A DNA stretch of 64,000 nt from Rubrivivax sp. (GTDB lineage Bacteria > Pseudomonadota > Gammaproteobacteria > Burkholderiales > Burkholderiaceae_C): assembly GCA_018780805.1 (NCBI GenBank), contig JADMJD010000079.1, positions 10,167 through 74,166 of the forward strand, written 5' to 3'. The notes under the pieces were generated by a model. It was not told the DNA's origin. It made no database searches and was given only the letters and a program-made list of their open reading frames with translations. Position numbers and translations under genes: made by a program. Of the stretch, positions 3,001 to 56,107 are shown piece after piece. How positions within the stretch are numbered: the stretch's first letter is position 1; each line of letters starts with the position of its first letter.

Positions 3001-5522
3001 ACGCTGTCCACCGCCGTGAGGCCGGCCGACAGGAACACCGCGCCGCCCGCCTGCACCGCCACCGAGGCGGCATTGAAAACCAGCGCCTGCGCGCCACTGG
3101 CCACCGCGCCGCCGGCCGCGATGCGCAGCGCACCGGCCACGACATCGGTGCCCGGCGCAGCCGCCAGCGTCACGGCGCCACCCGCCTGCAGGCTGACGGT
3201 GCCGGCGCCCGCATCGGCGCGGCCAAGCTGCAGGGCTGCGCCGGCCTCGGCACGTTGGGCGCCACCTTGGGTGAGCAGGCGCACATCGGCGCCCATGCCG
3301 AGGTTGCTGCCGGCACGCAGGTCCAGCGTCTGGCCGCTGGCCGCCGCGCGCACGTCAAAGGCCGCGCCCTGCAGCAGCAAGGCCTGCGAAGCCAGCAGGC
3401 TGATGCTGCCACCCAGCGTCAGCACCTCGGCACCCAGGCTCAGGTCACCCGCCAGCGCCTGCAGCAGGATGTGGCCGCTGCCGCTGGCTTGTGCGCGCAC
3501 CGCGCCACCGACCGACAGCGTGCCGCTGCTGGCCAACACGGCGATGGCGCCATCGCCGGAACCTGCGGTGCCCAGCCCGGTGACCACGAGTGCCGTTTCG
3601 TCGACGAAGAAGATGCCGCCGCCGGCCGTGGTGCTGGCCTGCAGCGAGCCGACGGTGCCGCGCAGCGCGGCGCCTGCGGCACCCACGCCGCTGGCGGCTT
3701 CCAGGGTGACCACGGCCGCTTCACCCCGCAGGTTGGCCGTGTCGCCGGCCAGGCCGTCGAGGATGCGGCCACCGGTGGAGCGCAGTGTGATGGCGTTCGC
3801 GGCTTCGATGATGCCGATGCTCAGGTCGCCCGCGGCCTCGATCTCGACGATGCCGCTGGGCCCGGCCACGATGGTGATGCCGCTGAAATCCAGCATGCCG
3901 CCAGAGACAAAGGCCACGGTGCCGCCGTTGGACGTGACCGCCGCGCCGATGGCCAGGTTGCCGGTGCCAGCGGCGAGCGTGATGTTTGCTGCGCCGGTGG
4001 CGGTGATAGCCGCCGCTGCGGCGGTGGTCAAGGCGTCGGCGGCCGAGAGCAGCACCGTGCCGTCAACGACGTTGATCGGCGCGTTCAACACCAGATCAGA
4101 ACCGGTGCCCAACGCCTGCAGCGTGAGTGCGCCGCTGCCGGCGATGGCGATGCCGGCACCGGCGGCCAGCGTGATGCTGCCGTTGTCGGCCAGCAGCGAT
4201 ATGTCGTTGGCCCCGCTGCCGGCCGCTTGCGAAAGGCTGACCACGGTGACGGCGCCGGTGATCTGCGTGTTGTCGAAACGCGTGGTGTTGCGCGCGGTGT
4301 TGATCTCGATGGCGATGTCGCCGGCACCGCTGTTGCTGGCCTGCAAGCTGTTGGTCTCGACCGAGTCCAGCGTGATGCCGGTGGCGGCCGACACCACCAG
4401 CAGCGGCGTGCGCAAGGCTTCATCAACGCGGTTGTCAGCACCTGCATCGGCCTGCACCACGCTGCCGCCGCTGCTGACCAGGCTGACGCTGTCGGCCTCG
4501 ATCTCGTTGGCCAGGTTGATGTTGCCGCTGGCCTCCAGCGCCAGGCTGTCGCCGGGCCCCAGCCGCAGCATCGCGTTGGGGTCGCTGTAGTCGCTGACGG
4601 TGATCGTGCCGCCACGCAGCACGGCAGGGTCGCGCAAGCTCACGCCGTCCAGGGCCGTTTCGGCGCCCACCGTCATCGCGCCCTGCCCGGTCTGGCCGAT
4701 GGCGATGCTGGAGAAGCCGTCGGCGAAGGCCCGCATCTCCGCGGTTTCCAGGTTCAGCACGCCCGCGGTGGCCGCACCCACGGGCGACAGCAGCGCCGTG
4801 GCCAGGCCGGGCGTGGCAGCGCGCAGGGTCAGCAGGCCGGTGCCGCTGAACAACTCGTCGCCCATCTGCAGGTCGATCTCGTCGGCCTCGATAGTGACGT
4901 TGCCTGGTGTCGTCGCCAAGCCGAGCTGCAGTTCGACCGCCGCTTTGAACACCACCTGCGTGGCGCCAGTGATGTTGAGGCTGCCGCCGTTGCGCAGCGT
5001 GATCTGGTCGTTGAAGGTGATGATGCCGCCGGCGTCGATGGTCAGGTTGCCGTCGACTATGAGTTCGCCCCCAAAGGTGACATCTTCACCGGCCACGACC
5101 GTTAGACCGTTCAACGCGTCTCTACCGTCCCCCTCTTCAACTGCACCAAAGAATGTGACATTGCCCCCTGCCACGACCAGTAACGTGTCGGTACCCGAGG
5201 AATGACTCACGACATAGTCAGTCGCATCGTCCCCTATCCGAACGTTGCCTACAGTTGCCTCGATACGCCGATCCCCGTCTACCTCAATCGATGTCTGTAT
5301 CGAGCTGATGTTGCCCGTTGCCACAATCAGGTCTGTGCTCAAGACGAAGGGCAGCCCGCTCAACGGCACGATGACGTCCTCATCCGCCTGCGGCGCCAGC
5401 GCCATCAGGCCTGCAGTCAGCGGGTCGGCCGACAGCAGCAACCGGGCCTCCAGGGCCTCCACGCGCCAGGCTTCGCGCAGTGCGCGTTGGAGCTTCGAAG
5501 CCGGCGTGCGGTCACAGTACAA
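1..5522 (-). CDS. Second giant LEPR-XLL-leader surface/adhesin-like protein, beta-helix-like repeats; 3' end runs off the window (>1,840 aa); not in the supplied ORF track
   Basis: Translated by hand: TTG at 5522-5520, GGAGG 6 nt upstream (5533-5529). Reads MYCDRTPASKLQRALREAWRVEALEARLLLSADP... The frame was read fully over 5522-4981 and spot-checked at 3001, 1201 and 1-40 (...DISAASLQVLTTGTGT) with no stop. The track lists no minus ORF in this frame, consistent with no stop inside the window. Codons are strongly G/C-ending outside 5050-5340. Confidence 0.9.
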   Translation of the reverse strand, partial: MYCDRTPASKLQRALREAWRVEALEARLLLSADPLTAGLMALAPQADEDVIVPLSGLPFVLSTDLIVATGNISSIQTSIEVDGDRRIEATVGNVRIGDDATDYVVSHSSGTDTLLVVAGGNVTFFGAVEEGDGRDALNGLTVVAGEDVTFGGELIVDGNLTIDAGGIITFNDQITLRNGGSLNITGATQVVFKAAVELQLGLATTPGNVTIEADEIDLQMGDELFSGTGLLTLRAATPGLATALLSPVGAATAGVLNLETAEMRAFADGFSSIAIGQTGQGAMTVGAETALDGVSLRDPAVLRGGTITVSDYSDPNAMLRLGPGDSLALEASGNINLANEIEADSVSLVSSGGSVVQADAGADNRVDEALRTPLLVVSAATGITLDSVETNSLQASNSGAGDIAIEINTARNTTRFDNTQITGAVTVVSLSQAAGSGANDISLLADNGSITLAAGAGIAIAGSGALTLQALGTGSDLVLNAPINVVDGTVLLSAADALTTAAAAAITATGAANITLAAGTGNLAIGAAVTSNGGTVAFVSGGMLDFSGITIVAGPSGIVEIEAAGDLSIGIIEAANAITLRSTGGRILDGLAGDTANLRGEAAVVTLEAASGVGAAGAALRGTVGSLQASTTAGGGIFFVDETALVVTGLGTAGSGDGAIAVLASSGTLSVGGAVRAQASGSGHILLQALAGDLSLGAEVLTLGGSISLLASQALLLQGAAFDVRAAASGQTLDLRAGSNLGMGADVRLLTQGGAQRAEAGAALQLGRADAGAGTVSLQAGGAVTLAAAPGTDVVAGALRIAAGGAVASGAQALVFNAASVAVQAGGAVFLSAGLTAVDSVAGAAVQRVAADGTASALAADAALAGLSAAGPLVLDASGTLDLNRAVATTAVGHARLTAAGTLNIDAALATLDGSLSLISTGDLTASAAIAVGGGGSLDAQAGAALAFSQATSTAGGDMRLLAIGAATVDDLNAGSGDINLSAASWQGSAGALFTADALRLAATAGAAGTASVPLQLQVAQLAAGAVGGGLYLAEADALQVVALAQTTGVRVLSDGTLDTDPRINSALAGLNSGAALVLRSGGALQIGAGATVAATGAALLATTAGALEVGSGLTAGAALSVQSAAQLTLSAPVAGSSVDLLAAADLVMAAGVGSTAASQHLQAGGALTVANLVATGGDIALVAGAALLDADATGDSNINLSAAQVWLQAGAGLGSAANALEIAVSTLAARSSAGGVHLVESDGLNVGSVAFNVNRVAADGSLSALAVSGSGLSALGAAPLVLTSLAGDLGVDAAVDSDGGALRLVAQAGAVHIAAAVDSGGGVLSLQSAGTLSLAAGGSLLTGGADLDVQAGAALTMAAGSSASTGGGDARMASAGVLSLSALDAGTGTVSLSATAVTDGDDAVDVTAARLRLVASSGGLGSSSDALDLAVGQLVASAGADGLYLANTGSLLIDTLAATTIARVAADGSVSEVAGDTPLSDLVSAGALILTNTGSLGLAAGGAALAAGPLRLAAMGSAADLSLAAAVRSTGGHLGLVAGRDVLASATIGTDTAGRSIVAEAGRHLSLGATLATNNGDLLLSAAGDLTLAGVGVSISAGTANAALLADRILDSDADGDSAVDVVAAAVRLTAGSSIGSGANALELQTGTLTAVAGTGAVFLADDAGLSLGAVAVAAERLAADGSSAAVALAAQQGLQAGGAAVLTLSSGDLAVASASTVGSLRLDVLAGQLSLGAAVNASGPVSLLASGNLSLAAAGDVTTSGAGSIDLQSGANLALADGAALTSGSGTLRLVATGSLSLGSLATAGGVSLQALTISDSGTTDLDISAASLQVLTTGTGT

Positions 5523-38500: not shown

Positions 38501-41500
38501 AGCGCCAGGTCTTCCACCGTCACGGTCAGCCCATCGACGCCGACAAAACTGGCGCTGCCGACGCTGGCCTGCAGGCTGGTCCAGCTGCGCGTGGGCGTGG
38601 TGGAGGACGACATCAGCGCCAGGCCGAACTCCACCCCGCTGAGCGCCAGGCCCACACGGTCGTCGCTGCCGCCGTTCAGGCCGGCAAACGCGCTGACGTT
38701 GCTGGCGCCGACGGCCAGCAGGTCCACCGCCACTTGCTCACCACCGGCCAGCGTGACGTCGGCGGAGCGCTTCTCGAAGCCGAAGTCGCCGTTGATCTGG
38801 ACGAAGCCGAAGATGTCCAGATCCAGCGTGCCGGTGGCGCGCAGCAGGTCGCCGTCGGCGCCGTCCATCGCCAGGTCCAGGCTGCTGCTGGCGCCGGTGG
38901 CCACGCTGAAGGCCGTGGCGGTGTAGTCCACGACAGCATCACCCAGCACACCGGCCTGGTTGAGCTCGACGCGCAGGTCCTGCACCCCCACGGTGAGGCC
39001 ATCGACGCCGACGAAGCTGGCATCGCCCACATCGGCCTGCAGGCTGGTCCAGCCGCGGGCCGGGTCAGCCCGGGCACTGAGCAGGGCCAGGCCAAATTCA
39101 ACCCCTGTGAGCGACAGACCCAGGCGCTCGGCGCTGTGGCCGTTGACACCGGCAAAGGCGTCCACGCCGCTGGCGCCGACGGTGAGGCTGTCCACCGCCA
39201 CCACCTCGCCACCCGCCAGCGTGACGCTGCGGGTGTCGCGCACCAGCGCGAAGTCGCCCTCGACCTGGAAGAAGCCGAAGAGGTCAATCTCCAGCTCGGC
39301 CGCCACCTCCAGCAGCGGCCCCCGGCTGCCATCCATGTCCAGCGCCAGCGAGGTGCCAGTGCCGGTGGGCACGGCCAGCGTGGTGGCGCCGGCGGCGTAG
39401 TCGATGACGCTGCCGTCGGCGGCCGCCTGGTTGATGTTGAGCAGCAGGTCGCGCGCGGCCAGGGTCAGGCCTTCGACACCGGCAAAGGCCGCCGTGCCGC
39501 CTTGCGATTGCACGCTGGTCCAGCTGCGTGCCGGGGTGCCAACACCCGCGTTGGCCGGCAGGCGCTCCGACACCATCGCCAGGCCGAAGCCGATGTTGCC
39601 GAGCGTGAGGCCGATCGCGTCGGGTTCGCCGCCGTTGATGCCGGCAAAGGCACTGGCGTTGGCCGCGCCGACCAGCAGCAGCGACACCTCCACCGGCGCG
39701 GCCGATTCGTCCACACCGGCGGTGTCGGGGTTGTCGGCCAGCGTGACCTGGCCGTCGCGTTTTTCGAAGCCGAAGCTGCCGCCGACCTGGAAGAAGCCGA
39801 AGGCGTCGATCTCGACCTCGGCCGAGACCCGCAACAACTCGCCATCGCCGCCAGCCATGCCCAGCGTGAGGCTGTCCTGCGCGCCCGGGCCGGTGACCAC
39901 GGTCAGCACCGTGGCATCGGCGCCATAGGCCACCACCGGGCCCGTGGCCGCGCCGTCGATCTGGTTCAGCTCGACGTGCACATCGGTCACGCCGACGGTC
40001 AGGCCGTCGACGCCGACAAAACTGGCACTGCCCACATCGGCCTCCAGCGAGGTCCAGCTGCGCAGCGCGCCGCCCTGCTCACCGAACAAGGCCAGCGCAA
40101 ACCGCACGCCGTTGAGCTCCAGGCCGACCTTGGCTTCTTCGCTCTGGCCGTTGATGCCGGCAAAGGCCGACAGGCCCTGGCCACCCAGCAACAGCCGGTC
40201 CACCGCCACGCTGCTGCCGTCCGACAGCTCGACGCTGCCGCTGGACTTTTCCAGCGCCAGGCTGCCGGTGACGCGGAAGAAACCAAAGGCATCGACCGTG
40301 ATCGTGCCGCTGGCCTGCAGCAGCTCGCCCAGCGCGCCGTCCAGGCCCAGGCTGATCGGGTCGGCGCCGGTGAGCACCTGCAGCTCGGTGGCGCCCGCGC
40401 TGTAATCGGCCACGCTGTCGTTCAGCGTGCTGGCCTGGTTGAGCGCCAAGGCCAGTTCATCGGCCCGCAGCGTGAAACCTTCGATGCCGCTGAAGCTGAC
40501 GCTGCCGGCCGTGGCCTGCAGGCTGGTCCAGCCACGGGCCGGGTTGTTGGGGTCGGTCCACAGCGCCAGCGCAAAGTTCAGCTCGTCGAGCGTGAAGCCC
40601 AGGGCCTCGGGGGTTTCGCCGTTCAGGCCGGCAAACCCGCTCATGCCGCTGGCGCCAATGGTCAGCAGGTCGGCATCGGCCACCACCTCAGCGTTGGCGA
40701 GCGTGAGGTCGGCGGTGGTGCGCTCGAAGCCGAAGGAGCCGTCGATCTGCACAAAGCCGAAGAGATCGATCTCCAGCGTGCCCGACACCCGGGTGAGTGC
40801 GGTCTTCAGGTCCAGGTCGAAGCCGTTGGCATCGCCGGTGGGGATCACGAGGCCGGTGGCGTCGAAATCGATGACCGCATCGCCCAGCCGGCCGGCGCGG
40901 TTGAGCGCGACCGACAGGCCGCTGCCCTGCACGGTGACGTCGGCCACGCCGGTGAGCGACACGCTGCCGGCACTGGCCTGCAGGCCTGTCCAGCTGCGTG
41001 TGGTGTCGGCGCGGGCACTGGCCAGCACGAGCGCAAACTCCACGCCGCCCAGCACCAGGCCCGGGCCATCGGGGATGCCGGCGGTGAGGCCCACGCCGCT
41101 GGCGCCCAGCGTCAACCAGTCGGCGGCGACCACCTCGCCACCGGCCAGCGTGACGTTGCCACCGTCGCGGCGGATCGCAAAATTGCCCTGCGCGCTGACG
41201 AAGTCGCCGACCACCAGGTTGGCGCCCGTCAGCTCCAGCTGCTGCAGGCCAACGCCAAAGTCGGCCGCAAACGTGAAGGTCTGGTCCACGACTTCCATCG
41301 CGCGGTTGCTGGCGTCCACGCCACTGGCGTTCCAGCGCAGCTGGGCGGTGGCGGTGGCGCTGAAGGCATCGCCCGCCACGACGCTGGCCGTGCCCTGGGC
41401 TTCGATGAGCGAGATGGCGCCCGTGGTGGCGTCCATCTGCAGTGCGACGCCGGCATTGGACACGCCGGCCAGCACCTCACCCGCGGCCAGCCAGACGCTG

Positions 41501-43320
41501 GCGTTGCTGGCCAGCACCTCCAGGCCACCGGTGGTGGCGTCGCGCTCGAAAGCGAAGCTGCCGCTGATCTGGAAGCTGTCGGCGATGCGGGCCTGCAGGT
41601 TCTGCACCGACACGGCAGGCAGGTCCACCGCCTCCAGCGTGTTGAAGGTGTGGCTCAGCGCGCCAGCCCGCAGCACGACACCCGTCTGCACGACACCGGT
41701 GGTGTTCAGGCGCAGCGTGGTGCTGTCGGCGCTGACCTCGGCAAACCCGCCGCCCTGCACATAAAAGCCGGTGGCACGGGCTTCCAGCGCATAGGGGTTG
41801 CCGACACCGGGCAGCACCAGCAGGCCGAAATCGGCGTCGTCCAGGCCGATGGCCACACCGCCGGCCTGCAACCGCACCGCCACGTCCTGGCCCACCACCG
41901 TGAGCCCCGCGGGCGATTGTGCAAAGCCCAGCGAACCCGACAGGCTGAGCGTGGGGCCGACGTTCAGGCTCAGGTTGCCGCTGAGGCTGGCGTATTCGCC
42001 CAGGCTGCCGTCGTCGTCGAAGCTGAAGGTTTCACCACCGGCAACGATGCTCTGCGGCTGCGACGTGAGGTTGACGCCGCTGTTGTTGGGCTGGCCGTTC
42101 AGCAGGCCCAGGCCGAGCGAAAAATCCAGCGCCAGGTTGCCCACGCCCACCGACAGGTCGGACGTGCCCGCGATGTCCAGCCCGCCGGCCGTGCCACGCG
42201 CCAGCAGCCAGCCGAGGTCGGTGCCCGGCGTGGCGGCGTCGATGAAGAGCAGGCCAAAATCGATGTCGCTGAAGGACACGCCGGGCTGGGACGCGTCGTT
42301 GCGGTCGGCGCCCAGGTAGCCGCTGCCATCGGCCACGGCCACCTTCCACAAGTCGTAGGCCTGCGTGGCACCGCCGGCGTCCAGCAGCACGTTGGCGGTG
42401 TAGCCCACGGTCAGCGCGCCGGACAGGGCCAGGCCGCTGCCCAACTCCAGCTCACCTGCGAAGCTGAAGCTCTGGTTGTCCTGGAAATAGTCGAAGTTCA
42501 GCCACTCGCCGGCACGGTCCAGCAGGGCCGTGGCGTCGTTGGAGACGTTGGCGCCCAGGCTGAGCAGGTCCAGCACGAAGTCGGTGGACGAATCCAGCGT
42601 GTGCGCCACCAGTTCGAGGTTGCTGCCGGCCTGGCGCAGCTCGAAGTACAGGCCGTTGCCCGCGTCCACCAGGCCCAGGCCGGTGGCAAAACTGCCGCTG
42701 ATGGCGCCGGCCTGCAGGAACTGGAAGACCTGGCCGTCCGTCGGCGTGAAGTCGTTGATCACGGCCACCTGCAGCGTGCCGTCCAGGAAGGCCGTGCCAT
42801 CGACCACCACCTGGTCGTAACCTGTGCCAGGTGCGGCGCCGCCGATCTCGATCAGCAACGTCGAGCCGGCGCCGTTGGAAAAGTCGGCCTGGACCTCGAT
42901 CAGTCCGGGCGAATAACCCGGCGCCAAGCGGCCATCGTTGTGCAGCGCCAGATCGAACACGCCGCTGCCGGCCAAGGTCTCGTTGGCGGCGATGGTGAGC
43001 GTGCCGTCGAGGTAGCCGCTGCGGGCAGCCAGCTGCGCGGCGTCGAAGGCGGTGGCATCCACCGCAAAGGTCTGCGCCAGCGACGCCGCCGCGGCACTGC
43101 GCAGAGACGCCAGTTCGGCCGGCGGCAGGCTGGTCTGCGGTGCGTCGGGGTGGTCAGGGTCGTAGGCGGTGCTGAGGTCAGCCTGGCCGTCGCCCGGCGG
43201 CACCAGCAGCGCATGGGCGCCGCCGAAGATGGGGTCGGCCGACAGCAGGACACGCGGCTCGAGGGGCTCAAGCCGGAAGGCGTCGCGAACAGCGCTGGCC
43301 AGCCTCCTCAACGCAGTCAA
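5512..43320 (-). CDS. Giant 12,602-aa LEPR-XLL-leader secreted/surface protein (mosaic repeat adhesin-like)
   Basis: Single uninterrupted 37.8-kb ORF. TTG start with GAGG 7 nt upstream and an in-frame stop just upstream. N-terminal FRLEPLEPRVLLSADP. Contains RTX-like GGxGxD nonapeptides, DxNxDG Ca-loop motifs and several repeat families. Ends FDYWEDSLVL. Confidence 0.93.
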   Translation of the reverse strand: MTALRRLASAVRDAFRLEPLEPRVLLSADPIFGGAHALLVPPGDGQADLSTAYDPDHPDAPQTSLPPAELASLRSAAAASLAQTFAVDATAFDAAQLAARSGYLDGTLTIAANETLAGSGVFDLALHNDGRLAPGYSPGLIEVQADFSNGAGSTLLIEIGGAAPGTGYDQVVVDGTAFLDGTLQVAVINDFTPTDGQVFQFLQAGAISGSFATGLGLVDAGNGLYFELRQAGSNLELVAHTLDSSTDFVLDLLSLGANVSNDATALLDRAGEWLNFDYFQDNQSFSFAGELELGSGLALSGALTVGYTANVLLDAGGATQAYDLWKVAVADGSGYLGADRNDASQPGVSFSDIDFGLLFIDAATPGTDLGWLLARGTAGGLDIAGTSDLSVGVGNLALDFSLGLGLLNGQPNNSGVNLTSQPQSIVAGGETFSFDDDGSLGEYASLSGNLSLNVGPTLSLSGSLGFAQSPAGLTVVGQDVAVRLQAGGVAIGLDDADFGLLVLPGVGNPYALEARATGFYVQGGGFAEVSADSTTLRLNTTGVVQTGVVLRAGALSHTFNTLEAVDLPAVSVQNLQARIADSFQISGSFAFERDATTGGLEVLASNASVWLAAGEVLAGVSNAGVALQMDATTGAISLIEAQGTASVVAGDAFSATATAQLRWNASGVDASNRAMEVVDQTFTFAADFGVGLQQLELTGANLVVGDFVSAQGNFAIRRDGGNVTLAGGEVVAADWLTLGASGVGLTAGIPDGPGLVLGGVEFALVLASARADTTRSWTGLQASAGSVSLTGVADVTVQGSGLSVALNRAGRLGDAVIDFDATGLVIPTGDANGFDLDLKTALTRVSGTLEIDLFGFVQIDGSFGFERTTADLTLANAEVVADADLLTIGASGMSGFAGLNGETPEALGFTLDELNFALALWTDPNNPARGWTSLQATAGSVSFSGIEGFTLRADELALALNQASTLNDSVADYSAGATELQVLTGADPISLGLDGALGELLQASGTITVDAFGFFRVTGSLALEKSSGSVELSDGSSVAVDRLLLGGQGLSAFAGINGQSEEAKVGLELNGVRFALALFGEQGGALRSWTSLEADVGSASFVGVDGLTVGVTDVHVELNQIDGAATGPVVAYGADATVLTVVTGPGAQDSLTLGMAGGDGELLRVSAEVEIDAFGFFQVGGSFGFEKRDGQVTLADNPDTAGVDESAAPVEVSLLLVGAANASAFAGINGGEPDAIGLTLGNIGFGLAMVSERLPANAGVGTPARSWTSVQSQGGTAAFAGVEGLTLAARDLLLNINQAAADGSVIDYAAGATTLAVPTGTGTSLALDMDGSRGPLLEVAAELEIDLFGFFQVEGDFALVRDTRSVTLAGGEVVAVDSLTVGASGVDAFAGVNGHSAERLGLSLTGVEFGLALLSARADPARGWTSLQADVGDASFVGVDGLTVGVQDLRVELNQAGVLGDAVVDYTATAFSVATGASSSLDLAMDGADGDLLRATGTLDLDIFGFVQINGDFGFEKRSADVTLAGGEQVAVDLLAVGASNVSAFAGLNGGSDDRVGLALSGVEFGLALMSSSTTPTRSWTSLQASVGSASFVGVDGLTVTVEDLALEINQAGTLGDAVVDYTASPLTLPTGTSSDLTLAMDGDDGELLRATGTLTIDLFGFVMLDGDFGIEKRDTTVTLADGNDVDVGLLTIGANNVSAFAGLNGGTDDALGLALADTSFALALASSRAEPTRSWTSLQANVGSAGLVGIDGFALQADTVSLEINQAGRAGDVVIDHAATALEVLTGPSSSIVLDMDGADGELLRASGELTLDAFGFLQLDGGFAVEKKSSDLTLSDGSTAAVDLLTIGGGNVNAFAGLNGGTADELGLKLEDVNFAIALMSDPVGTPTPRQFMGLQAEAGSVSLVGIDGFEVGATDLVVQINRGVAGVGGAADLVVDFEAAPLAVLTGPDGTLDLTLEGSLGQVTRAAGTVTLDVFGFVMLEGDFAFQQSSAALVLADGEQVQAQLLTVGGSGIQAFVGINGGTDDELGVKVENAGFAVALMTDSGNPARKWTAVQAEASSVSLVGIDGLTLSGNNLTVAINRAAVLGDQVVDFADGATDLAVRTGPDSEFQLDMAGADGPSLKAAGNLQLDVFGFVQLSGDFAIEQRSQAVVTAEGETLQADLLTIGASSVNAFAGLNGGTDDALGLQMDDVGFAVALVSEQAGAGVATPRKWTVLQATAGSVGLVGIDGFVLNANNLDVQVNQAGLPGQAVLDFVDGATVLNVSTGPDAEDVVAFGMDGAEGELIRAVGEIEIDAFGFFQVDGGFAVEKKSGSVVLANGNTVAVDVLTIGASNVNAFAGVNGGTDDAIGLQLTGIDVGVALFTSQATPAAKWTTVQANADSVGFVGISDLLPTVQDLRVELNQSARPADGVIDFAAQNFEVATGPDSSLLLAIDGGVGQVIRAEGQITLQLAEFAYLSGRIGFEKYTPTAPITLRTPTGVATQVTPTSMLAITGRDIDIFVGWADGGVDTSRTFAEQAGNLYGFGVEGADFGLLLTKAGGQSYTTLKARLETVALYGFDPDDFQLSATGFTLEINRADPTGKSIDFLASYGEDGLALGFEGQVVLDFEAGDRIGVFAEEATLTISEFLYFRGGIGFQKADYANTLRTGPGQIVSQARGFSIGGSDIDAFVGYADGGIAPDQPFADQADNLFGFGIEGLTFGFLSVRDGGGRTFQSLKASADTVAIYGFDPSDFQLSALDLRIEYNSGIAGPGGLVQALDFTATGGGELAIPTGGDDVVLDFKGERLGLFAGLATLSISNFVFVQGAFGFQKSTITGLKNQLGLPLLNTRGFSVGASNVDVFVGYAENGIDRSKTFSEQADSLFGIGIEDISFGLLMAKAGGVSYTALQASSANAAIYGIDPDDFELSVQGVQVTLNTVTGSPYAIDFAASGGYAVPTGADPVVLDMSGPVVGAQLTGATLRIADFVEIQGNFGFLKGEASGIGVTGPLGVGFTDVKARSIEIGATDVNAFVGINGGSDDAIGLVIEDLDFGLGLFTTVFDPLSPDNALVPAGTRFTALKAAAGQIAFVGFEDFVELSLQDLAVDINLSSNPLYIADFTQGGTTEGYEIATGGEPLLLDFTNSLISATVGQATANIAGILSVQGGLAFQKRVVEDVTFHGPGIELQTNADALVIAGQDVYAFAGINGPYRTDSNNDGVIDDNDAPNDDAIGFAIDDLDFAFAMMSPLLPGGVTIPGNFFALSASAGLAGLVGTDPFLTAQATDVVLEFNGAFVGKIPLPAAYVDFSTMDGGGLAIPIGSDAEALRIDFDSNSLRIGMTATLGLFDLFTISESFDFEFELPDTGSLIPSISLSKLTGFLPDTLPGFDFLDGALDFVKDIQLSIGFNPDIGLTLFGSISLPDLSLNIGDFFYLNGDFQLNLGDTFTGSMYTGLPKELSLIETLLGDEAQQIIDLLKSVGQLSDDYSRLGGVTFNGLSFGASDVNVFIGVGGPDWDRPFSEQDDLVGFGLQDVSLGLGVFKAQLTGIQTQNFYSLTLEAAEVGTYGFGDLLTIRATDVTVEVNSGGKLFGGLMRSTADYTTVKTLDANGNEVTGYAIKTGGDPVTLSFSGPEIIGIDIGLAEIAVADFLFLRGSLAFRQGEVYDVTVNLGGLATLAEDLGLENGEFPLQVVAMTLGGANLSGFAGIGGPYRFGEDADGDGLLDQINEGAAGLVVDDVDFGFALFTPAIGKAIPGLEQYTPRFMATKAYVGQAGLVGIDPDLLSIRAEDIEVNINSFYVPGVPPPVNLAIQLFGPPSIDFPSSPSFKDFSEDLNANDVLDAGEDRNQNNLIDRAGFALPAGGNNMIFIDFDEEIVQAKVGYAEINLGGFIQLSASMAFTKRGSETVRLSNGDETIVTSLAIGINDAYGFVGFGGYWQDSNGNGRIEETDSPDTSAVGVVIEDLDVGVIVAKELVISGSGVSVGVYLAAYADVDRVGLVGVPEVTLEGSLQLEVNSGIRFFLGAGQFTTDPLTGAVAQNSDVEVSFGFEVIDFSAATWTNSQGVISPGYGIETGNPDEPIVLMYDELFLRIFGEAELDVAGLVLLTGVIDLRLSASQGLQVFADVNARIGSASAPILQTQATGLLVIRDGIAMRLEISTQLDFGDVAELNAELELTMNSFGTDIIYEVPEAFLDKVDFPVYEIPATPPGKPNWTGPYVALTGQGDLNLLDGLLVMQGDFAVIVSTSGAEIGITAQIDLPVLEPLSVTGTLGIVPAGLYGSLEIGGGGAEGKILDAGVFSISGRFLLQINTTAESQQVRGRDAQGNVFDANGQPVIVTLTPQMLRLSGAASVAIGPISLEGKVDLLIDRNGFQAALNVTLDLGDFGELAFDGAAAIGTDANGDAFFALRVATNMEFGVSSLNVKAAAILQINTSSLDYTTLAGQVIAGDTLFDLALDGGIKLLAFDITFGGRVSIVEEVFRLEFNGGLNFFNALTIDIGGFIQSDGQFEITGSASINIFLGPLHLEAGMSLTLSSKPRFAAKAYGSLDFEIDFGFFEIDFTIAGFYGEIDITPAAAYLAARVTVMGITVGGSYIWRFGDPPDISHLDADGTLYLHMGDQSGRYGSGDLYDDITLEAFNIDQDGNTLTVRSLGETDTYNASQVRRIVGYGGSGNDFIYVGPSVQAELDFDGQAGNDKFLILGGASSSQIRGGAGKDAFVGGSSNGLRFWGGDGDDSFIGGDGSEIVDMGAGNNTMVGNGGQDVFTVGAGENTVAGGAGNDTVYLSAGGLLTVLGGEGFDRVIVAPVSTTAPIQLSTAKLELQTSAFQRTVQFAGVDRIEVTDQNTGGTTLVTADNTTWGDTDLVLDAAGVVDIRNARLVAPDAMFSVSATGIHGEFDTRLAELSVLLRGTPDGAFGDIVVREDDSLTIVSDGRAGGGLATATGGVDVRLAGREALFSHDSGLISTGPGRSLLLVADDIDLRAGNDTVRGDGTLTIRTEQARQGYRIGSAGQSEFGFDFSDGGRTGYMELGMRDLSALRDGFAAVTIGHRGLGVEMAIGDVADSIIRGFSFSARFDDTTLLQADRVTVVGNVRASGTLDIEAGLLEVQRQNIHDLLGAASVSVQARVLNLSVDEQLIVSGTLSGEDRLNIVVDGTTGLGALVSYGDGANSFTSDTSALIRTLNDNATLNIVTSKSIYNAGTVALNGARSVMDIQAGTGFTLLEGSALVAEAADGRISVAADRHVHLNPGSAIISGGRFVTGSAPVITGPNAVLEIRTEGEMLLGGVITSAGQMTLEAGEVQDDLADYFDRLPGVELAATADASTVASILAGLGAGNVSAALRALLADQSLALGDSAGVVAVGDYRPFSELRPLQQFQIAQSLGYTVFADGAFYNDVSGVIREALIAGPVVGYDPAAVAWGDAGRPANGTPFADLNGAQKVAVAQHLGYTTYTGGVYYKADAGPQEEALRTGFLQGFSADYSNDLIDWAGAGVAAPAGDPSFAQITTAQKLVVANSIGYRFDWGTISSERWIGNSTVDYASVPRSVWIDASTANFSVLIEAGVWGQAGVPGPGTAYADLTSAQKAVVDANFSFEPAAGTDYDDLTGDQREVVDNLVRPGLDVLFKDLTAAQQAVVVAYIDGLYAAGKGDQVTFYNYDGPSGEKLVTGFTEGRVTQYRNSDIFWGDAGAPADNASFESLTADQKRVVAHALGYEVIDGTAFYTADAPEGLQLTLGFTAGGADYDIRTIDWGGVPAPAADASFEDLTPTQRDVVLAMLGYTEVDRQLFLNPSAPTPDKQVVDDLQEGVNGDFLINDIEWGRVAKPALGTAFAEMTRAQQDVVLATLGYERWSGLVYEKPGAGSERYRLSFTEGSDYTNENVVWSLLEIPDAGTSFDDMTAAQQYRVLSQSGFAEYNLPVFYKAGADQPVRTSFVQGLEYTNAGAGTAEPNRWLIDDGANRYLVYAYDETLDGVIDEIRVQELHPLFGQRGAGFLLTGTVNTLQDDADFVVSTVDDIIVRGNFNLLGAGSDLVLESQRWVYWEGQANVNGDITLIGRGAPSLGQPGEGLSVYVHPSSTLNTTAPGADIHIEGARDVHLLGALVAGGSISDKNIQWAGPDSTVTLIAGEQIRIDTAVAASQAVLLSTTGAPGADDEGFGLVLGSAGGLTAAGLTSDGSGGRVEADIVGGITLAGRIIAGGTVTQVFNDDTGRLESESIAWSDEASTVRLAAQGQLWLGGLTRAVSGATVEVGATVLSNMHIALIGGANADGIGVLIPGAARVIVSDPDGDILVQAQQDAVVNGWLVAGGELVDAYDAAGFYLGSTLRNFAGNSSITITAEQQVRLGRDVVAGRTIDVRGGYEAPVNDPDDPFASYGMVLGGNVSLSTWMDDSTILLSAVGDLAVLPPAWTQELIADGFAELANGRLTADAALQISVVMGSWTATATVLVTAASTQDNQGLASLRDDLQAAILAASFVVSATQGSPALNTPATLTSADRPTVRLDEGRLLLTGSRAFSIAAANEGGAERLGFTQVGSTPTGGALASARAYAIDAIGVGSVVQLGRAGAAGGEIVISNAIRAHTAIEMYASTTDAGAPAVRLTASGLLETLSGGMRLTPYGAAVFEGELIARGSDADIVITAADTLELRGKLTAQRNIIISAGTVQAAGEVSLRTVGTSSLSTLDAGARIVLTGLNDVVIDSEVGTGSPGLERLEIGSQTGTLTIAATSGQLETGGLIELYGVNVDVAGTVRSLGATAASYDDEVILRAEQDLLLHGDFEFAGSVLATAGDDIEAWNTSLSAQATGQRLTMRAGDAIEIGARNATPNAALLEADALVRLTAGGRITVGDAGQLYSTGENSRIELEAQTLRISGALRAGADAADADSSWAWSGRGAVIDLAAQRDIVIGNSGSGIGGELAATGTIALSAGTSAAGMGIDMTTGSRIVADASGDGRWPLAADQLGDGLVSLLADGDIRLMGFVRAGDEGPADAAYADAGADVAVQSRAQVRIGGLVSAADRLEVFGGTDETGIAIVVDTLVLVGGQRQSGGTLDTDAGGDILLGAIDSILIEGVVGQLSGEGDLGDQGKVSTLVIESIAGDLTLRRDINVADSVEITSGNLSLLNGSHVFAVADGSTARLEARTRLYVAPDDLVSDPVRVTIVQADRLVHLMAPDIQIDGFVEAKGADGRLLLSAANSVLIGGTLGAGRRIDVHVGVDLSRGRDALEAVDSNGVSAIGAADVFGGDITILGRGLLDTDGDLRLVAGGDITLDAGTAVGPERELKIQITTTQNQDVEIVTGYRQEAVGTVDVPVVTWETTEVTEQVGTELVKAGSEYWTMNVTLSQIGYYNPKTNSFREVLIEGLDYSNDGRNNLPSINWSNAGDEFNPGRQVTGAGIPSGDYTNQNYRPFQALNDAQRWAVMNSLGYKPLYDFGYNTAVKHVTLNGSVTATAATPTWDDPQNVDKIYFIDISGWRDKFVLMPKGAQEDILAVATNDQARFLVNDPSRDGESTGGTWKYANQIDEDDPNDPNDSFELKGELVGRYKDDGKVQYTQSASFLRNSGNIDDPNLQDPNRVSIDGDNSAAYWTVNYGGGGQRYYEITGQSVAGLDGDFSDDVVRDPNWAWNPGSYGNGSDSPYTGARGQNFGQTHAIYAPNNYLGALDTVTGTTQSLVLEGGNPTTRTPSWNGVSGAVGAVQNNGNAIFTAWEHGVGSGFGNTWIGNVSWVGSGPNDEHSSIQFYSTTYRVDGYQHIDYGGVRDPYYGTGNVVRNDDYSSYKAWGYHYETYNDYRYTWTSTYANVYDQRIQLSYTLTTQSQDIVDYRPVYQTTVQEVMVTQYQSVTVWQDVPNIVIQSQLVTTVQEIDAGARNYSSSDASLNAGNILLDAGASVRLSGRISASDFLQVNAGSEVALRGELLSDDPGAARRATELLGNRIELHSGIVTRVDDSTVLGGTQVGTQGAASILLTTDGDLLVGGQIMADSGVLGSVTLRADGEIGLSGAITASSITIEAGAVTRDANNNIVDGRGAGGIDIDSDSRLAALAGDLTLMAGPYAGSIRLDGAALSASGTVSMTAESGQILQTFFTDADGDVVTDDFGNPAINGLVSGAVLRAQAETGIVLATAVQRIEWARLSGAGNIDLVNQVVVPVGQVATSADYQLTLDQVRVADGFIRIKSFSSVTATLLRADGSTDNNDIFLSVYQAGGFRSDLLLGQVLTNAQRGDIFIKAEGEVRSSLGGVIQAEELSVVSGRQDDDGTAGHIGIVDINSDVSVLLLQTVAFAQVNIQQTDTRLLVRSAVVADGSFRLTGQGVVELGSVRVSSNRDQETAGTPTAEIEVEAAGDLLVRFVSAGVFYNNAGEAPQVRLPDGSFAAPTVVSSAGDVTLRSTGGSVLESVLDDGVDVVADRLVIEADTGVIGLEIAANTLWVETSGGNIQLFESDGALESQLGLDVLRATSANTLAGTTRVELQAVNTLRVGSIASDDNFIEGLVRGNSIRLASTDASVIVPFAMDNGDDALQYTRGVAFVAGETVQLYQFFEADEWMEYRAQDYFVFGSGVGTGIDADTTRMLPTVLAADTLILETGGTLSITGSISANRRLELIAGESVLITGLDDNTPAQILHKASYFGGTSAGSNIDVLVITARGDAASRSGRDYDGDGEFSSVLHETTEGANDYNNDGDTQDTLSEIDLDLDLNNDGDKLDLLIEGGQQIDYNGDGDFDDVIEEWAGGANNPNANTDTGDILLRLGSLPVDSFELRASGNIRLDVATSLELRGFVGGLTGFDAARNVRLDILGELKLFGGIVSAQTPADGQPVPEGTGALVVRATTLSADAASVFIADRLDILTTGSIQANTLINTLVAVSTGTGNITIKEAGELTVELISARTGSISVEAGGSVNVDQIVNFTGGHGISVRANGLLSIDSIEAGSSDGAQKVAGSTVYLDANDGNASTVDIVEWLDRGDNAEEQGAADVYAYSLTVLGNAVTKRLDGAGDRGTGTDLDLRYSGSLTTGETEITEEGVINGSLGVQTAEVDAVSTAGIDRAQSSRVVFGGLATDGMVYSVTLAGQTFRQTISVAGDFATALEFDAMLAGLEAQISAGGPYTVSVGSDDALTITATTPNQAFTVAAEVREFVTTPLDTADVVENDGATPLVAAGFVRDERRTVTLADDIPVNAGKTYSVVVNSSTYTASFGETLGGFTVADARTLVAVLGLKIEAGQDLQAGERTVHLSAVTVTNGAVYSITIAGTTFQYEAFLTAEGGDSAASIATALAGLVDASAPYNAYAQGDVVVVTGGVGNSTSITGSTGITVDSTPRVLRLQAEVGNTSFTIGTISATDSVDAPVQVQNADNNQPDIWRVTFSPNPLPNVSYSINLEGQVYTVNSGNGPTNASLANLFADAMASDPTANATVDGSGRLVLTGVADDVDFNVSATATITKSSGVGTTARVQDPGTNSTQISQFQFKDAPLGVADVVSVTVNASVFSYTVAQGDGWDEVIDGLIDAINDDTSLAVTAAAGVPDRAVRLTADQQNTGFSVSGMSVLDAIDRTAAGASVSTSTPTPAGILSRQISTLDFSAFVGDLATGDLFTLTVGTTAFEIELGVDAAVDWAGLLQEMADLATGTGEVTAAFDANARTLTLTAVNNNDPFAVGAGSRSAGLATEVPLDGDSVLILPDRDPGTVAYRALGGSLSVVLLQTHAGDTITLRADESLVVVDALNTGSTGIVTLSAGNSLTLGDTVTAQRLNVAAGDDLNLQTRVGVLEVTLDSDNLPSGQFSDFALEQNLAREDLDITRLVMDGGNVTITVDGNLDLSGLTGSVGRMTLIATGSITLSGTALIGELVLQAGTTVQADIDATTLDARAGGAVTIVDATGLTITRLESTGAAIDITAGLDLLIEAPLATLGGAAISLRSTAGLIDLRQALTTVGGAVTVVAGNGLFMNELADITTLGGNVLLNAGAGGLQMNASTYVDARVSDPDPNDSIVPGGTLTLLATDSILLGKLRTTSTADVVITTGGVVDVGEGDIDIVAPLARLVITSDAGIGGTIGIGDDGNPLEVQVRSLWLENSGGGDISIEEVDGLDIESIRQNAEGQNSNGPTPQTSAVRIVTRSGDLTVLGAEDGGSGVVSTGGPIVLYAGQGSLFIGADVVSGGGNITLTAEAGDLVLADGVNANDSSDDIGGAILLRAVQGSILTDLAAAQWRGFDSADGFAASLEWALSKGRFEVFANSGLVLAANLTPDEEVFQGISNGTVLRRAGGAFVETVGGQLTLTALNQVGEAVEGFRYSPLAIFVNAGSVAAVSSERDTVAVVAAGAVSLGTGGSSGSRAGSTDVISLAGKQVIDAAVDADGEDVGVAADDVDILAPMRSAGGTLSFRTIAADGSIVLGSLSGGNGARVFSMADGSAMHLDATDMANLRDGFAQLVFGANGNAQVVMVMTADGSAITMRDDVVFFTNGDGGHVMIGAHFLAPSLTIFGSGDTTAVVADVTATAGDVTVLDSIRVDGERVITAQGGDILLGGANTHYLGGDSAGRDTLTLLASAGNIRVASRIGGGDEGSDALQLLRVQGAGDVSFDQDIVVDGDLIIDATGLVTFNGSITLLNGGDLIIRGATQILLRGGVNLQGTAADGSAGDILLEADEIDLSMSEQQLAGSGLLTLRSTTVSQGIAVASPAGVATNGVLNLDMADIRTFGDGFSRIVIGHQGNDGHALAGSGAVTVGARVDADSLTFRDSVALFGSTIAVADYSQAAAVLRLGAGATLTLDAVSVITIANQIEADAVYLVSATSSVRQIDAAADGLLGEAIRTAALTVDTLEGASLGSLEAGTLDAVNRGNGDFFFSQLAARDTLRFSSAALDGTLTVLRLAQLSAQGSGNIDLRAAAGGLVVDAAGSGVWTAGSGSITLATAGAAEQAPDLLLAQTLQTTSGGLTLELAGALSTTGAGRITLAGNGALNITTGGDVHIGADVVAAGGLVTITAGGSLVMDDGTTVSSLGSTSTDARRVVMESVGDMRLSIVSADQSLALTSTAGALRDGLTGDAANLRAPTARLAAATGVGEAMAALRTTLQTVGASNSSGNSGIGGIFLDETDALSFVGGGLAADGGRIVVTLRTGDLTVNQSITSSAATDGGVQLQVLGAGAHILLQANVVSDSGDLRLLATGDVQLAAGQRAQTKNAASLLEVVAGGQLLMAPDARLVSAGGAQRIEAMGGVLIGQFSAGTGTVSVSTGGAIVGADTGGVVHVAAGQVSLVAEGGIGSGTAAIETAVNVLAASSDTGSIFLAEGNGLVVGTVGSVSGATSGVDGAIVISNGNTHEGRFVVDADVVAAGSGNILLAANSAAPAVPGDIDINATVNAGTGAISIVAEGALLVSATGRVLTQGNTLDLRAGGSITLDAAAVLASGGGDVRLAAGTDLTVGGITAGELSLVAGGAVLSSSTVTATQLRVQAGGAVTVQLDTDVLAVSAGGAVSLTTAGDLLIGSAGPISVAVVLADGTLAAEALTDAVLGGLQAGGALTLQVAGDVLASGGGALDLAASGLSGSVGGSLQAVRDGDLVLGDLSVGGDLSLVLTSGDLSLAADAVVATAGGSIVLQVQAGDLTMAADSSLRSGGGAIQLQATGDISLGGVDAAVATITVTAGGHIGDAGGDGVNLRGQALILSAGAGIGAWGDGLRTEAGSLQAAAGSGALVLSDVDALTVTGASADGAVQLASGGTLSITGAVTAGTDLSLSGAALDIGAPLQAGGAIALAADGALQVAAAVNAGGSLTLSGVDILIDAALVAAGDLAITGSTLTLNGDLQAAGDLHLTALGDLLATGHLAAGADLLASASTIALGGDMQVGGRLVLTATQALTLGGEVAVAGDAAINASTLELAGTLDTAGALRLQAESSLRIGGTVLSTGTLVATSGGSLTLDGSASARGSSHLLLASAGALQINGSAQTQAGHLSASAGGDLQLNGLVGTGDAAGTVVLSAGGSLRFGSDGLLATLGDALVEAAADIQIGRVTTPGDLMLVAAGWIIGSSGQRVAAEGLLMQAGQGIGSSAARVETQAGTVSARAGAGGIWLQEADAIRVHDVAVRVHRVGSDGVAGAALDFLQSDLITTSGNGSIGLRTLDGSIDLLDGSTPSDGRAITAHGSGHIELSAGGDGAVLDVRGDDITQEGPVQIDSDLRIQGDFVVRAGTGEGTGDGAILIDGAIDGNPGGAPDRLELHADGAPVVVTGAIGATTPLDGLLIDGATDVTLAQVTLNGNLVIEASGVVTLTGPIVLNGGSLTITGASRIVLGDVVLASGDLVLSADALQFNGSVRGSADAQVLLTPTTAGATLTVGAAGDGLVLTAGTLAALQGFGSLQLGDASSGALVIDTATLSSLVLDQLNATGSRIELSGRGSVDASVVLTSRGAISMAPGALLATGNHELTLCAAGDLAIAELDTGSAGLVLVSGGRISDADRDSATNVRAAWLVMRGLGPVLGAGQSVAMDAIDVEANRVDIDADGGLILRDSTADGRTRYNLLKDGVLHQQIEAQGPSTRAASGGDLSSGDAAAAAAWLNALRPLAELRDSDTRARSALAALDGDRALPAGSAAAAYLATLTADPLPGATIDPAMAIDAGLSVEAFGLASRLAQGWVLGSASQQPAATGLGSLGSDRFDYWEDSLVL
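7720..8350 (-). repeat. Short-period (~19-21 aa) beta-helix coil repeats
   Basis: Run of L-x-[IL]-x-G-x-[VL]-x-A-[GA]-G-x-L-x-L units (GGTLSITGAVTAGTDLSL, GALQVAAAVNAGGSLTL, TLTLNGDLQAAGDLHL, TLELAGTLDTAGALRL). Confidence 0.7.
14491..16308 (-). repeat. Six ~85-100-aa beta-beta-alpha-beta repeats
   Basis: Shared pattern Y/F-S-V-T-[LVI]-x-G-x-x-[FY]-x-[YF]...[helix: A-x-x-L-x-x-x-I]...L-T-L-T-A, e.g. YSVTLAGQTF...LTITAT, VSVTVNASVFSY...LIDAIN...VRLTAD, FTLTVGTTAF...LTLTAV. Confidence 0.7.
17269..17472 (-). repeat. Four clustered D-x-[ND]-x-D-G-[DE] Ca-binding loop motifs
   Basis: DYDGDGE, DYNNDGD, DLNNDGD and DYNGDGD within about 68 aa. Confidence 0.75.
25640..27310 (-). repeat. About 10 copies of a W-G-x-x-x-x-P...F-x-x-L-T-x-x-Q-x-x-V-V-x-x-x-L-G-Y repeat
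   Basis: Examples: FADLNGAQKVAVAQHLGY, FESLTADQKRVVAHALGY, FEDLTPTQRDVVLAMLGY, FAEMTRAQQDVVLATLGY. An isolated copy (FQALNDAQRWAVMNSLGY) lies at 21142-21204. Confidence 0.85.
29040..29400 (-). repeat. RTX/haemolysin-type Ca-binding nonapeptide repeats (internal)
   Basis: GGSGNDFIY, GQAGNDKFL, GGAGKDAFV, GGDGDDSFI, GNGGQDVFT, GGAGNDTVY plus degenerate copies. Confidence 0.8.
31300..41230 (-). repeat. Tandem array of about 19 beta-rich repeats of 154-180+ aa in the giant protein
   Basis: The marker [RK]-[SGK]-W-T-x-[LV]-Q-A-x-x-G-S recurs at 40990, 40528, 40054, 39520, 39049, 38581, 38113, 37639, 37159, 36673 and 36193 (period mostly 462-486 nt). Diverged copies lie at 35680, 35170, 34657, 34144 (510-513 nt), 33598, 32725, 32095 and 31429. 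Confidence 0.9.
42600..43020 (-). other. N-terminal beta-rich domain of the giant protein (LAPGYSPG...GYDQVVVDGTAFLDGTL)
   Basis: The G-x-LAPGxSPG...GYDQ-x-x-V-x-G-x-A-x-LDGTL pattern resembles the beta-helix cap domains I recall from autotransporter-passenger and PEP-CTERM-type proteins; recognised by eye. Confidence 0.55.
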
Positions 43321-56033: not shown

Positions 56034-56107
56034 GTGCGGGTTGTACCAGCGGCGCGGCGCGCCCAGGCTGGCATCATCGGCGCCATCTCACCAGGAATTG
56101 ACAAGAC

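Follow-up and report, generated by a model that had tools for sequence, protein, structure and literature searches.

A 12,602-residue LEPR-XLL protein of Rubrivivax sp. and an adjacent gene set that may export it via TolC

The subject of this study is a window of 64,000 nucleotides from Rubrivivax sp. (contig JADMJD010000079.1, positions 10,167 to 74,166) and the open reading frame (ORF) of 12,602 codons that occupies about 37.8 kb of its minus strand (5512..43320). This ORF is a real, intact, coding gene and, judged by its domain content, its product (hereafter the giant) is a member of the annotated LEPR-XLL family of giant proteins and not an orphan. We consider it probable, at roughly 0.6, that the giant is a Ca2+-binding extracellular filament protein of this family, which would be exported via TolC by the set of genes next to it. 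To the question how a cell exports a polypeptide of 1-4 MDa, the locus is a compact, syntenic candidate answer in which two substrates with a shared leader lie together with SapC, TolC, two adaptors, a protease-adaptor fusion and a SecA-like protein. With the giant a known and barely studied family gains a further member of very large size; the candidate export pathway is the more novel part of the finding.

The window has about 70% G+C and long spurious ORFs are therefore expected. The giant gene starts with a TTG codon three codons past an in-frame stop, and has a G+C content of 0.68/0.48/0.90 at the three codon positions. G+C at the third position (GC3) lies between 0.87 and 0.92 in all thirteen tiles of 1000 residues and, because it is uniformly high in every tile, the gene is coding over its full length. 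On the plus strand a frame of 5,366 aa (22039..38139), antisense to the giant, lacks the coding GC3 signature and was rejected as a GC-rich artefact; it carries a risk of being mis-called as a gene. The longest exact direct repeat inside the giant gene is 27 nt and the most alike repeat units are 75% identical at the DNA level, so that the repeats are unable to mislead an assembler, and repeat collapse or misassembly is ruled out. The sequence originates from a groundwater metagenome, and the source run has the giant on a single contig of 58.5 kb. Contigs of a strain about 1% diverged, obtained in a different study (runs X2/X3), tile positions 4600-43900 colinearly and in frame, one of them (31.6 kb) spanning 4600-28568. 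The two strains differ by substitutions only, bar two indels of -1 and +1 that compensate each other over a distance of five bases (8471/8476), and 34 of the 40 substitutions listed for 24157-25531 fall on codon position 3. About 60 nt near the indel pair (8526-8588) are unaligned in this strain at 95% identity, and 8471-8588 (minus strand) looks like a local hypervariable patch in the beta-helix region. Short 'joints' in the read layouts were rejected as rearrangements, as their sides of 20-28 nt are chance k-mer matches.

A relative about 5% diverged (L082) has a syntenic ortholog with a called length of 12,628 aa, situated on a JGI contig of 187 kb, where the SecA-like neighbour is 90% identical to that of the window; over the first 889 codons of the ortholog 181 synonymous differences were counted against 47 amino-acid differences. 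In metatranscriptomes, multi-kb contigs about 92% identical to the giant gene were present in three runs, which suggests that an ortholog is transcribed, DNA carry-over being also possible. An assembly chimera, or a decaying pseudogene that merely looks intact, has a negligible probability in view of the uniform codon bias, the same-size ortholog, the colinear independent contigs, the purifying selection, the lack of long repeats and the transcript contigs; what could be said for it is that the assemblies are all short-read, that the database relatives of the giant are mostly fragments and that one relative is interrupted by insertion sequence (IS) elements. A previous sequence-only reading of this DNA had claimed an intact protein of 12,602 residues over 37.8 kb, and GC3, the colinear strain, the 12,628-aa ortholog and the 27-nt limit on repeats bear this out.

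Membership of the LEPR-XLL family is indicated by the domain itself, which scores above its cutoff, by its N-terminal position and by the sapC and tolC neighbours. The leader noticed in the sequence-only reading turned out to hold the LEPR-XLL motif (aa 15-32; NCBIfam NF012209, 29.3 bits against a cutoff of 17), placed in a conserved basic stretch of about 35 residues, RDAFRLEPLEPRVLLSADP, that ends in LEPLEPRVLLSADP. The motif is situated at the extreme N-terminus, 15 residues in, and the layout is alike in P0001-P0009 and P0033-P0162; the leader itself is conserved in three related loci (L082, L084, L087) and in P0001-P0009. When the first 1,200 aa of the giant served as query, ten relatives only were recovered, all of them fragmentary and annotated as 'LEPR-XLL domain-containing protein, partial'. 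They stem from Burkholderiaceae, Azohydromonas and Malikia, and their leaders consist of a basic stretch followed by RDAF(R/K)(L/V)E(P/A)LE(P/Q)R(V/I)LLSADP and are divergent thereafter. A Sec or Tat signal was ruled out, as the leader has no hydrophobic stretch and no twin-arginine consensus.

The major tandem repeat of the giant (repeat A) has a much wider distribution. Its profile was searched exhaustively against 1.84 billion cluster representatives (clusters at 50% identity), and matched 1,746 clusters at E<=0.001 and 532 at E<=1e-30, with up to 38 copies and up to 7,900 aa; the array of the giant is one of the longest among the matches listed. Repeat A thereby forms a large family for which Pfam has no model. 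A LEPRxLL-type motif is found within the first 150 residues in 20 of the 149 best matches, most others being internal fragments. Three relatives (P0030, P0036 and P0040) show the order repeat A, a domain of about 490 aa, RTX and beta-helix module, followed by LGY repeats or what comes after these in the giant. Because relatives keep the same order in the N-terminal half the architecture is not unique and, on this sequence comparison, the giant belongs, as one of the long members, to a sizeable family that Pfam hardly covers. One further member, on a 619-kb long-read contig (L092:10001-32123), is a LEPR-XLL/repeat-A giant of 4,303 aa (P0087) that is followed by a transposase and then by ORFs of 1,300 and 936 aa, separated by IS elements; this locus looks like one in which insertion sequences have split a giant gene.

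The computed product of 1.28 MDa has an isoelectric point (pI) of 4.05, a single Cys and 0.8% Lys, and these values, together with the RTX and DxNxDG motifs, point to a secreted protein: the giant has the composition and Ca2+ motifs of an extracellular substrate transported unfolded. Seven divergently transcribed genes start 160 bp upstream (Table 1). They encode a SapC family protein, a TolC-like outer-membrane factor, two membrane-fusion proteins (MFP1 and MFP2), an M50 intramembrane metalloprotease fused to a membrane-fusion domain (M50-MFP, with six hydrophobic segments), a truncated SecA-like protein and an Lcl_C lipoprotein. In four relatives the arrangement is syntenic in its entirety, with Lcl_C. 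The lipoprotein gene possibly belongs to the system; in the window, as in 5 of the 5 related loci examined, it comes after the SecA-like gene. Downstream of the giant a second LEPR-XLL giant (ORF2) likely starts at a TTG codon at 5522 and overlaps the stop region of the first by 11 nt, which suggests that the two are translationally coupled; over its first ~400 aa, ORF2 shares 45% identity with the first giant (aa 10490-10890).

RTX repeats, a very low pI and a near absence of Cys are typical of substrates of type I secretion systems (T1SS), and TolC, MFPs and SapC, all of them present here, are associated with such systems, e.g., sapCDEF of Campylobacter fetus. It is conceivable that the giant is a classical RTX adhesin exported C-terminus-first by a T1SS whose ATP-binding cassette (ABC) gene lies elsewhere in the genome, the M50 and SecA-like proteins being accessory or unrelated. 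The acidic-plus-hydrophobic C-terminus, FDYWEDSLVL (aa 12593-12602, window 5515-5544, minus strand), would fit this, as it is conserved in four relatives with true C-termini (P0059, P0066, P0128 and P0136; their ends read YEYWMEELYI, YEYWTEDIVF, FEYWIENIAI and YEYWTESLSV), and it is possibly a C-terminal signal or anchoring motif, or a second signal. Likewise, the LEPR-XLL protein P0003 (1,759 aa; L089:1-9067) adjoins a complete SapC-OEP-ABC-HlyD set. A protein of 3,536 aa with Big_13 is also encoded at the P0003 locus. SapC accompanies both kinds of machinery. On the other side, no ABC, RND or MFS transporter is encoded in the 64-kb window and no ABC transporter at the loci of syntenic relatives; no ABC gene was seen at the inspected loci of the gene set across phyla either, where no search aimed at ABC genes was made. 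No Ig-like extender is detectable. Since there is no ABC transporter and the RTX block is internal, with 7,800 residues between it and the C-terminus, the locus does not present the picture of a classical T1SS, and we regard this explanation as unlikely. The framing of the giant as an unusual T1SS adhesin of new architecture was not upheld, given its place in the LEPR-XLL family, the occurrence of repeat A in 1,746 other clusters and the lack of an ABC gene.

The giant shares with T1SS RTX adhesins such as LapA, SiiE, MpIBP and FrhA that it is a giant, acidic, Cys-poor, Ca2+-binding and repetitive surface protein, that TolC and MFPs are encoded nearby and that a putative ligand-binding insertion interrupts a long extender. 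In contrast to these adhesins it has no Ig-like extender, its RTX block is internal and not C-terminal, no ABC gene is present at the locus and the conserved element is an N-terminal leader. Two points of the sequence-only reading, that the architecture is unlike that of LapA, SiiE and MpIBP and that there is no clear Ig/cadherin array, are thus confirmed: no Ig, cadherin, BIg or VCBS array was found with Pfam (E<=0.01 on tiles, E<=1 on segments), and the model of repeat A is a meander of long strands and not an Ig fold. For a retention module of the LapG type, aa 30-346 gave no family match in Pfam.

The gene set is found far beyond Rubrivivax. One genome per GTDB species was scanned with an alignment of the SecA-like protein, which gave at least 500 confirmed relatives among the first 600 pattern matches, and the best 80 loci were analysed. 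These loci are spread over more than eight phyla; represented are, among others, Alpha-, Beta- and Gammaproteobacteria, Campylobacterota, Nitrospirota, Planctomycetota, Verrucomicrobiota, Myxococcota, Bacteroidota and Chlorobiota. The M50-MFP gene adjoins the SecA-like gene in 69 of the 80, nearly always together with MFP2, and in ten of the 11 loci without it the sequence upstream is shorter than ~3 kb. HExxH and NxxPxxxxD[GAS] are present in each of the 69 M50-MFP homologs. The usual order is giant ORF, MFP2, M50-MFP, SecA-like and MFP1, with SapC at times next; the order of the window, SapC-TolC-MFP1-MFP2-M50-MFP-SecA-like, occurs in four loci, and a SapC homolog was detected in L004 only. 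An ORF of at least 1,200 aa is present in about 28 of the 80 loci, mostly running off the 10-kb flank, and in all six loci where the start of the giant is visible (L032, L035, L042, L056, L069 and L074) it reads LEPRxLL(S/Y)AD. The present giant has no similarity by BLAST to the giant ORFs at these other loci, which contain RTX, PKD, He_PIG, cadherin-like and Big_9 domains. At the level of sequence, what is conserved across the gene-set loci is the leader and the neighbourhood, not the cargo. When the look-up was made from the substrate side, the LEPR/repeat-A proteins P0002 and P0033 were found directly adjoining the gene set, and P0064 adjoins SapC on a short contig. Carriers of the gene set beside unrelated giants include cultured Achromobacter, Bordetella, Ramlibacter, Neptuniibacter, Marinobacterium, Bradyrhizobium and others, which makes the hypothesis open to genetic test. 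Strains among them are Achromobacter piechaudii NBRC 102461, Ramlibacter montanisoli B156, Neptuniibacter caesariensis MED92 and Marinobacterium mangrovicola DSM 27697. No description of an MFP/M50-MFP/SecA-like gene set was found in the literature, and it is apparently undescribed.

The gene set might also be unrelated to the giants, i.e., an efflux system, or an export and maturation system for peptides resembling ribosomally synthesised and post-translationally modified peptides (RiPPs), that shares genomic islands with them. The closest curated matches of the M50 domain are indeed RiPP leader proteases (daptide, 164 bits against a cutoff of 300; YydH/LiaK), the MFPs score best against RND-type adaptors, and the gene set was not shown in two of five LEPR-protein look-ups. 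This explanation is considered quite improbable, because giant, MFP2, M50-MFP and SecA-like follow each other in this order and on the same strand in unrelated phyla, because all that giants of unrelated domains (RTX, PKD, He_PIG, cadherin) have in common is the leader and the neighbourhood, and because no small precursor-peptide genes or RiPP-modifying enzymes are present among the window ORFs inspected. There is a resemblance to peptidase-containing exporters of bacteriocins and RiPPs (NHLP/daptide) in that a protease is coupled to an export apparatus and that the substrates share only a short N-terminal leader. The present substrates, in contrast, are of megadalton size, the protease is of the intramembrane M50 type and joined to an MFP, instead of being a C39 domain on an ABC transporter, and cleavage is putative.

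Walker A (TGEGKT) is kept in 67 of 81 SecA-like homologs, the distant members keeping TGEGKT/DEAD, whereas the SecA-like protein of the window and P0011-P0018 have ELPALxDRR in place of TGEGKT (ELPALKDRR in the window); EPLD replaces DEAD at Walker B in the window and in P0011-P0014. With Walker A and B lost this protein cannot be the motor, and from its motifs it looks like a pseudo-ATPase here. MFP2 has a large cytoplasmic N-domain (window 46555-47650). In an MFP2 homolog of another locus (L091, 3768-5609) this domain gives weak GAF matches, and such a GAF-like domain hints at export that is regulated by a ligand. Accessory Sec (SecA2) systems export very large serine-rich adhesins in Gram-positives, and the likeness is that giant, repetitive surface proteins with atypical N-terminal signals have a dedicated SecA paralog encoded next to them. 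Unlike SecA2, the SecA-like protein is truncated to ~600-680 aa, lacks SecY2 and Asp partners, is coupled with MFP/TolC in diderms and is catalytically degenerate in the present clade.

Literature on the LEPR-XLL family is nearly empty, apart from a genome note on a Vibrio LEPR-XLL/RTX protein of ~8,000 aa and a 2026 preprint on the epibiont of Chlorochromatium aggregatum (Chlorobium chlorochromatii). The preprint reports Cag_663 (36,806 aa) and Cag_665 (20,647 aa), described as among the largest prokaryotic ORFs known, with N-terminal LEPRxLL motifs and flanked by sapC and a tolC homolog (Cag_662/Cag_664). They were modelled as an N-terminal extended beta-sheet plus a Ca2+-binding beta-helix of 12-14,000 aa; both are produced as protein, and immunofluorescence and immunogold labelling place both at the partner bacterium. 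A horizontally acquired secA (Cag_1676) belongs to the same co-expression cluster, and an M50 protease is unmentioned (2026 preprint). The present giant is like the LEPR-XLL giants (NF012209, model name 'LEPR-8K'; Cag_663/Cag_665) in the LEPRxLL leader, the extreme size and the sapC/tolC neighbours. It resembles Cag_663/Cag_665 further in the N-terminal beta-sheet repeats (likened by description), the internal hemolysin/RTX Ca2+ motifs and the long C-terminal beta-helix. It is about a third to a half as long, comes from a free-living Burkholderiales bacterium of groundwater, and has the full MFP/M50-MFP/SecA-like set adjacent, whereas in C. chlorochromatii the candidate hlyD and secA lie elsewhere. 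The possibility that the segments would map onto an already characterised family of the same architecture is therefore realised in part: an annotated family exists, and is uncharacterised apart from this one preprint.

Returning to the Ca2+-binding filament exported via TolC, the following course of events can be proposed. The giant and ORF2 would be the substrates of the set SapC/TolC/MFP1/MFP2/M50-MFP/SecA-like/Lcl_C, and their N-terminal leader would serve as the recognition element, bound in the cytoplasm by the SecA-like protein and/or SapC. The M50 intramembrane metalloprotease, whose nearest curated relatives are RiPP leader proteases, may remove the leader in the way of leader-cleaving peptide exporters, and the unfolded chain would leave the cell through the MFP-TolC duct, either in one step, as in a T1SS, or in two steps, in which case a Sec-like motor would first take the N-terminus over the inner membrane. 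Outside the cell, folding driven by Ca2+ (RTX, DxNxDG and solenoid) may also bias the movement outward. The product would be a filament hundreds of nm long, made of a beta-sheet ribbon and a solenoid shaft with a binding insertion, and might be used in adhesion or cell-cell contact, for which Cag_663/Cag_665 reaching the partner cell are the model. It is tempting to speculate further that LEPR-XLL giants in general are substrates of an undescribed, phylum-spanning, TolC-dependent non-ABC pathway made up of M50-MFP, MFP2 with a sensor-like cytoplasmic domain and a truncated SecA-like ATPase, with the LEPRxLL leader as the signal. This extension is held tentatively and at somewhat below even odds; under it, the window would be a complete example with two substrates and all of the machinery, the ATPase having turned into a non-catalytic receptor.

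Several observations count against the proposed filament and its export route. First, the link between substrates and gene set is drawn from gene neighbourhood only, and this neighbourhood is not constant: P0003 lies beside a classical T1SS, as described above, and neither export system is found within 10 kb of P0087. Second, the SecA-like proteins of this clade are without Walker A/B, and no other energiser is encoded in the window. Third, the conserved C-terminal motif and the preprint's own model point to export C-terminus-first, in the manner of a T1SS. Fourth, cleavage of the leader is pure inference, and the function in adhesion or contact is proposed by analogy. Fifth, the 'head' is without recognisable fold or family match, and the AlphaFold2 model of repeat A is of moderate confidence (pLDDT 64, one of five models good). 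Should the export link not hold up, what remains is a thoroughly verified and very large representative of an annotated family.

The anatomy of the giant is given in Table 1. The mosaic listed in the sequence-only reading is for the most part borne out, with 'beta-cap', 'helical', 'stalk-and-head' and 'helical tail' as putative structural labels. On three tiles and nine segments, RTX and LEPR-XLL were all that Pfam and NCBIfam returned; in Pfam nothing was above threshold on tiles or segments, and one RTX match was below it. Where at least seven repeat families had been claimed, the count is six repeat families and four single-copy segments. The domain at aa 33-346 has no Pfam or PDB match. 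The repeat of about 156 aa that follows it is a real tandem repeat, with 23 units instead of the ~19 proposed earlier; 15 of the 23 are well conserved, and units at both ends of the array are diverged. Two units, aligned with 13 other unit pairs, were modelled by AlphaFold2 as an all-beta meander with antiparallel strands of 15-18 residues. Foldseek gave no real fold match for this model in the PDB, only outer-membrane barrels with TM <=0.26; homology to such barrels was rejected, and the matches were read as reflecting long antiparallel strands. The domain of ~490 aa at aa 4114-4600 has no Pfam match. The RTX nonapeptides and the LGY repeats that had been noticed are both present: six GGxGxD nonapeptides at aa 4646-4778 match CyaA, lipase and serralysin chains at E=1e-10, RTX being the only part of the giant with a PDB sequence match, and about nine LGY matches at aa 5323-5920 are accompanied by one at aa 7361-7420. 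The beta-helix module of ~250 aa, first seen at aa 4899-5146, recurs at aa 10257-10465, 10533-10778 and 12192-12487, and at the N-terminus of ORF2.

The C-terminal half consists largely of beta-solenoid-like shaft, into which the aromatic-rich insertion, the DxNxDG cluster and the ~95-aa modules are set. The single-copy insertion at aa ~7270-7860 has no Pfam match and retrieved three weak, partial fragments only in a homolog search; it is a candidate for a ligand-binding 'head'. The four DxNxDG motifs at aa 8617-8681 agree with the loops that had been reported. Of the six alpha/beta domains of ~90 aa proposed earlier, two are strongly related; three others are weak (E~0.02-0.03), and one is recognisable by eye only. 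Neither RTX nor any Pfam or PDB match was found in the last 4,600 aa. These include ~2,800 aa rich in Gly, Ala, Leu and Thr (aa 9613-12450), and similar sequence is found at aa 5921-7250 and 7861-8600. AlphaFold2 modelled a part of this shaft (aa 10490-10890, with an alignment of four internal paralogs) with a pLDDT of 78 and a pTM of 0.84 (pLDDT 71-78 over the five models) and with the topology of a short-strand solenoid. The ~2,900 aa of beta-helix claimed earlier are to this extent supported by the model; in Foldseek the top PDB neighbours are all beta-solenoids, and none is significant (best E=0.27).

As the C-terminal third models as a beta-solenoid and as these non-significant neighbours include EtpA, HMW1, FHA and autotransporter passengers, besides curli CsgA and tapirin, a beta-helical exoprotein of the type V class, i.e., a two-partner secretion (TPS) or autotransporter protein like FhaB or CdiA, was considered. 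It has a very low probability: the giant has no Sec signal peptide, no TPS (Haemagg_act) domain and no C-terminal beta-barrel, and no TpsB/Omp85 gene is nearby. The likeness to FhaB/CdiA-type TPS exoproteins is in the long beta-solenoid shaft; the TPS domain, the Sec signal and TpsB are where they differ.

Table 1. Features of the giant and of its neighbouring genes, in window coordinates.
Feature	Position	Strand	Basis or remark
ORF2, second LEPR-XLL giant, >1,840 aa, running off the window start	1..5522	-	GC3 0.87; NF012209 23.5 bits against a cutoff of 17
Ala-rich tail (aa 12451-12602)	5515..5970	-	ends in FDYWEDSLVL
Beta-helix-like shaft (aa 9613-12450)	5971..14484	-	loose self-similarity; AlphaFold2 on aa 10490-10890
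About six modules of ~95 aa with alpha/beta pattern (aa 9008-9612)	14485..16299	-	similar modules in P0030
Four DxNxDG Ca2+-loop-like motifs (aa 8617-8681)	17221..17493	-	motif match
Aromatic/Asn-rich single-copy insertion (aa ~7270-7860)	19741..21513	-	composition 6% Y, 2% W, 6.6% N
'LGY' repeats (aa 5323-5920)	25561..27354	-	motif L-T-x-A-Q-K-x-V-V-A-x-x-L-G-Y; also in P0040
Beta-helix module of ~250 aa, first copy (aa 4899-5146)	27883..28626	-	iterated hidden Markov model (HMM) search
Internal RTX beta-roll block (aa ~4630-4782)	28975..29433	-	six GGxGxD nonapeptides, aa 4646-4778
Conserved domain of ~490 aa (aa 4114-4600)	29521..30981	-	also before RTX in P0030, P0036, P0040
Repeat A, 23 tandem units of ~156-170 aa (aa 347-4113)	30982..42282	-	all-beta by AlphaFold2 model
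N-terminal domain (aa 33-346)	42283..43224	-	single-copy in iterated HMM search
LEPR-XLL motif (aa 15-32)	43225..43278	-	NCBIfam NF012209, 29.3 bits against a cutoff of 17
SapC family (PF07277)	43483..44211	+	domain match
TolC-like outer-membrane factor	44183..45751	+	domain match
MFP1, short periplasmic adaptor with signal peptide	45756..46550	+	domain match
MFP2, 633 aa, cytoplasmic N-domain of ~370 aa, then membrane-fusion domain	46555..48456	+	domain match
M50 site-2-protease-like intramembrane metalloprotease fused to membrane-fusion domain, 715 aa	48474..50621	+	HELAH and NGNPLLRFDA intact
Truncated SecA-like protein, 596 aa, matching the SecA DEAD domain only	50621..52411	+	Walker A/B degenerate
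Lcl_C (PF07603) lipoprotein	52443..53882	+	same position in clade

Beyond the lipoprotein gene the window contains a cyanophycin cluster (54921-61570), which encodes a full cyanophycin synthetase and, besides it, a second ligase consisting of Mur-ligase domains only, an S51 cyanophycinase and an AstE/AspA-like deacylase. This cluster is syntenic in the JGI contig of L082.

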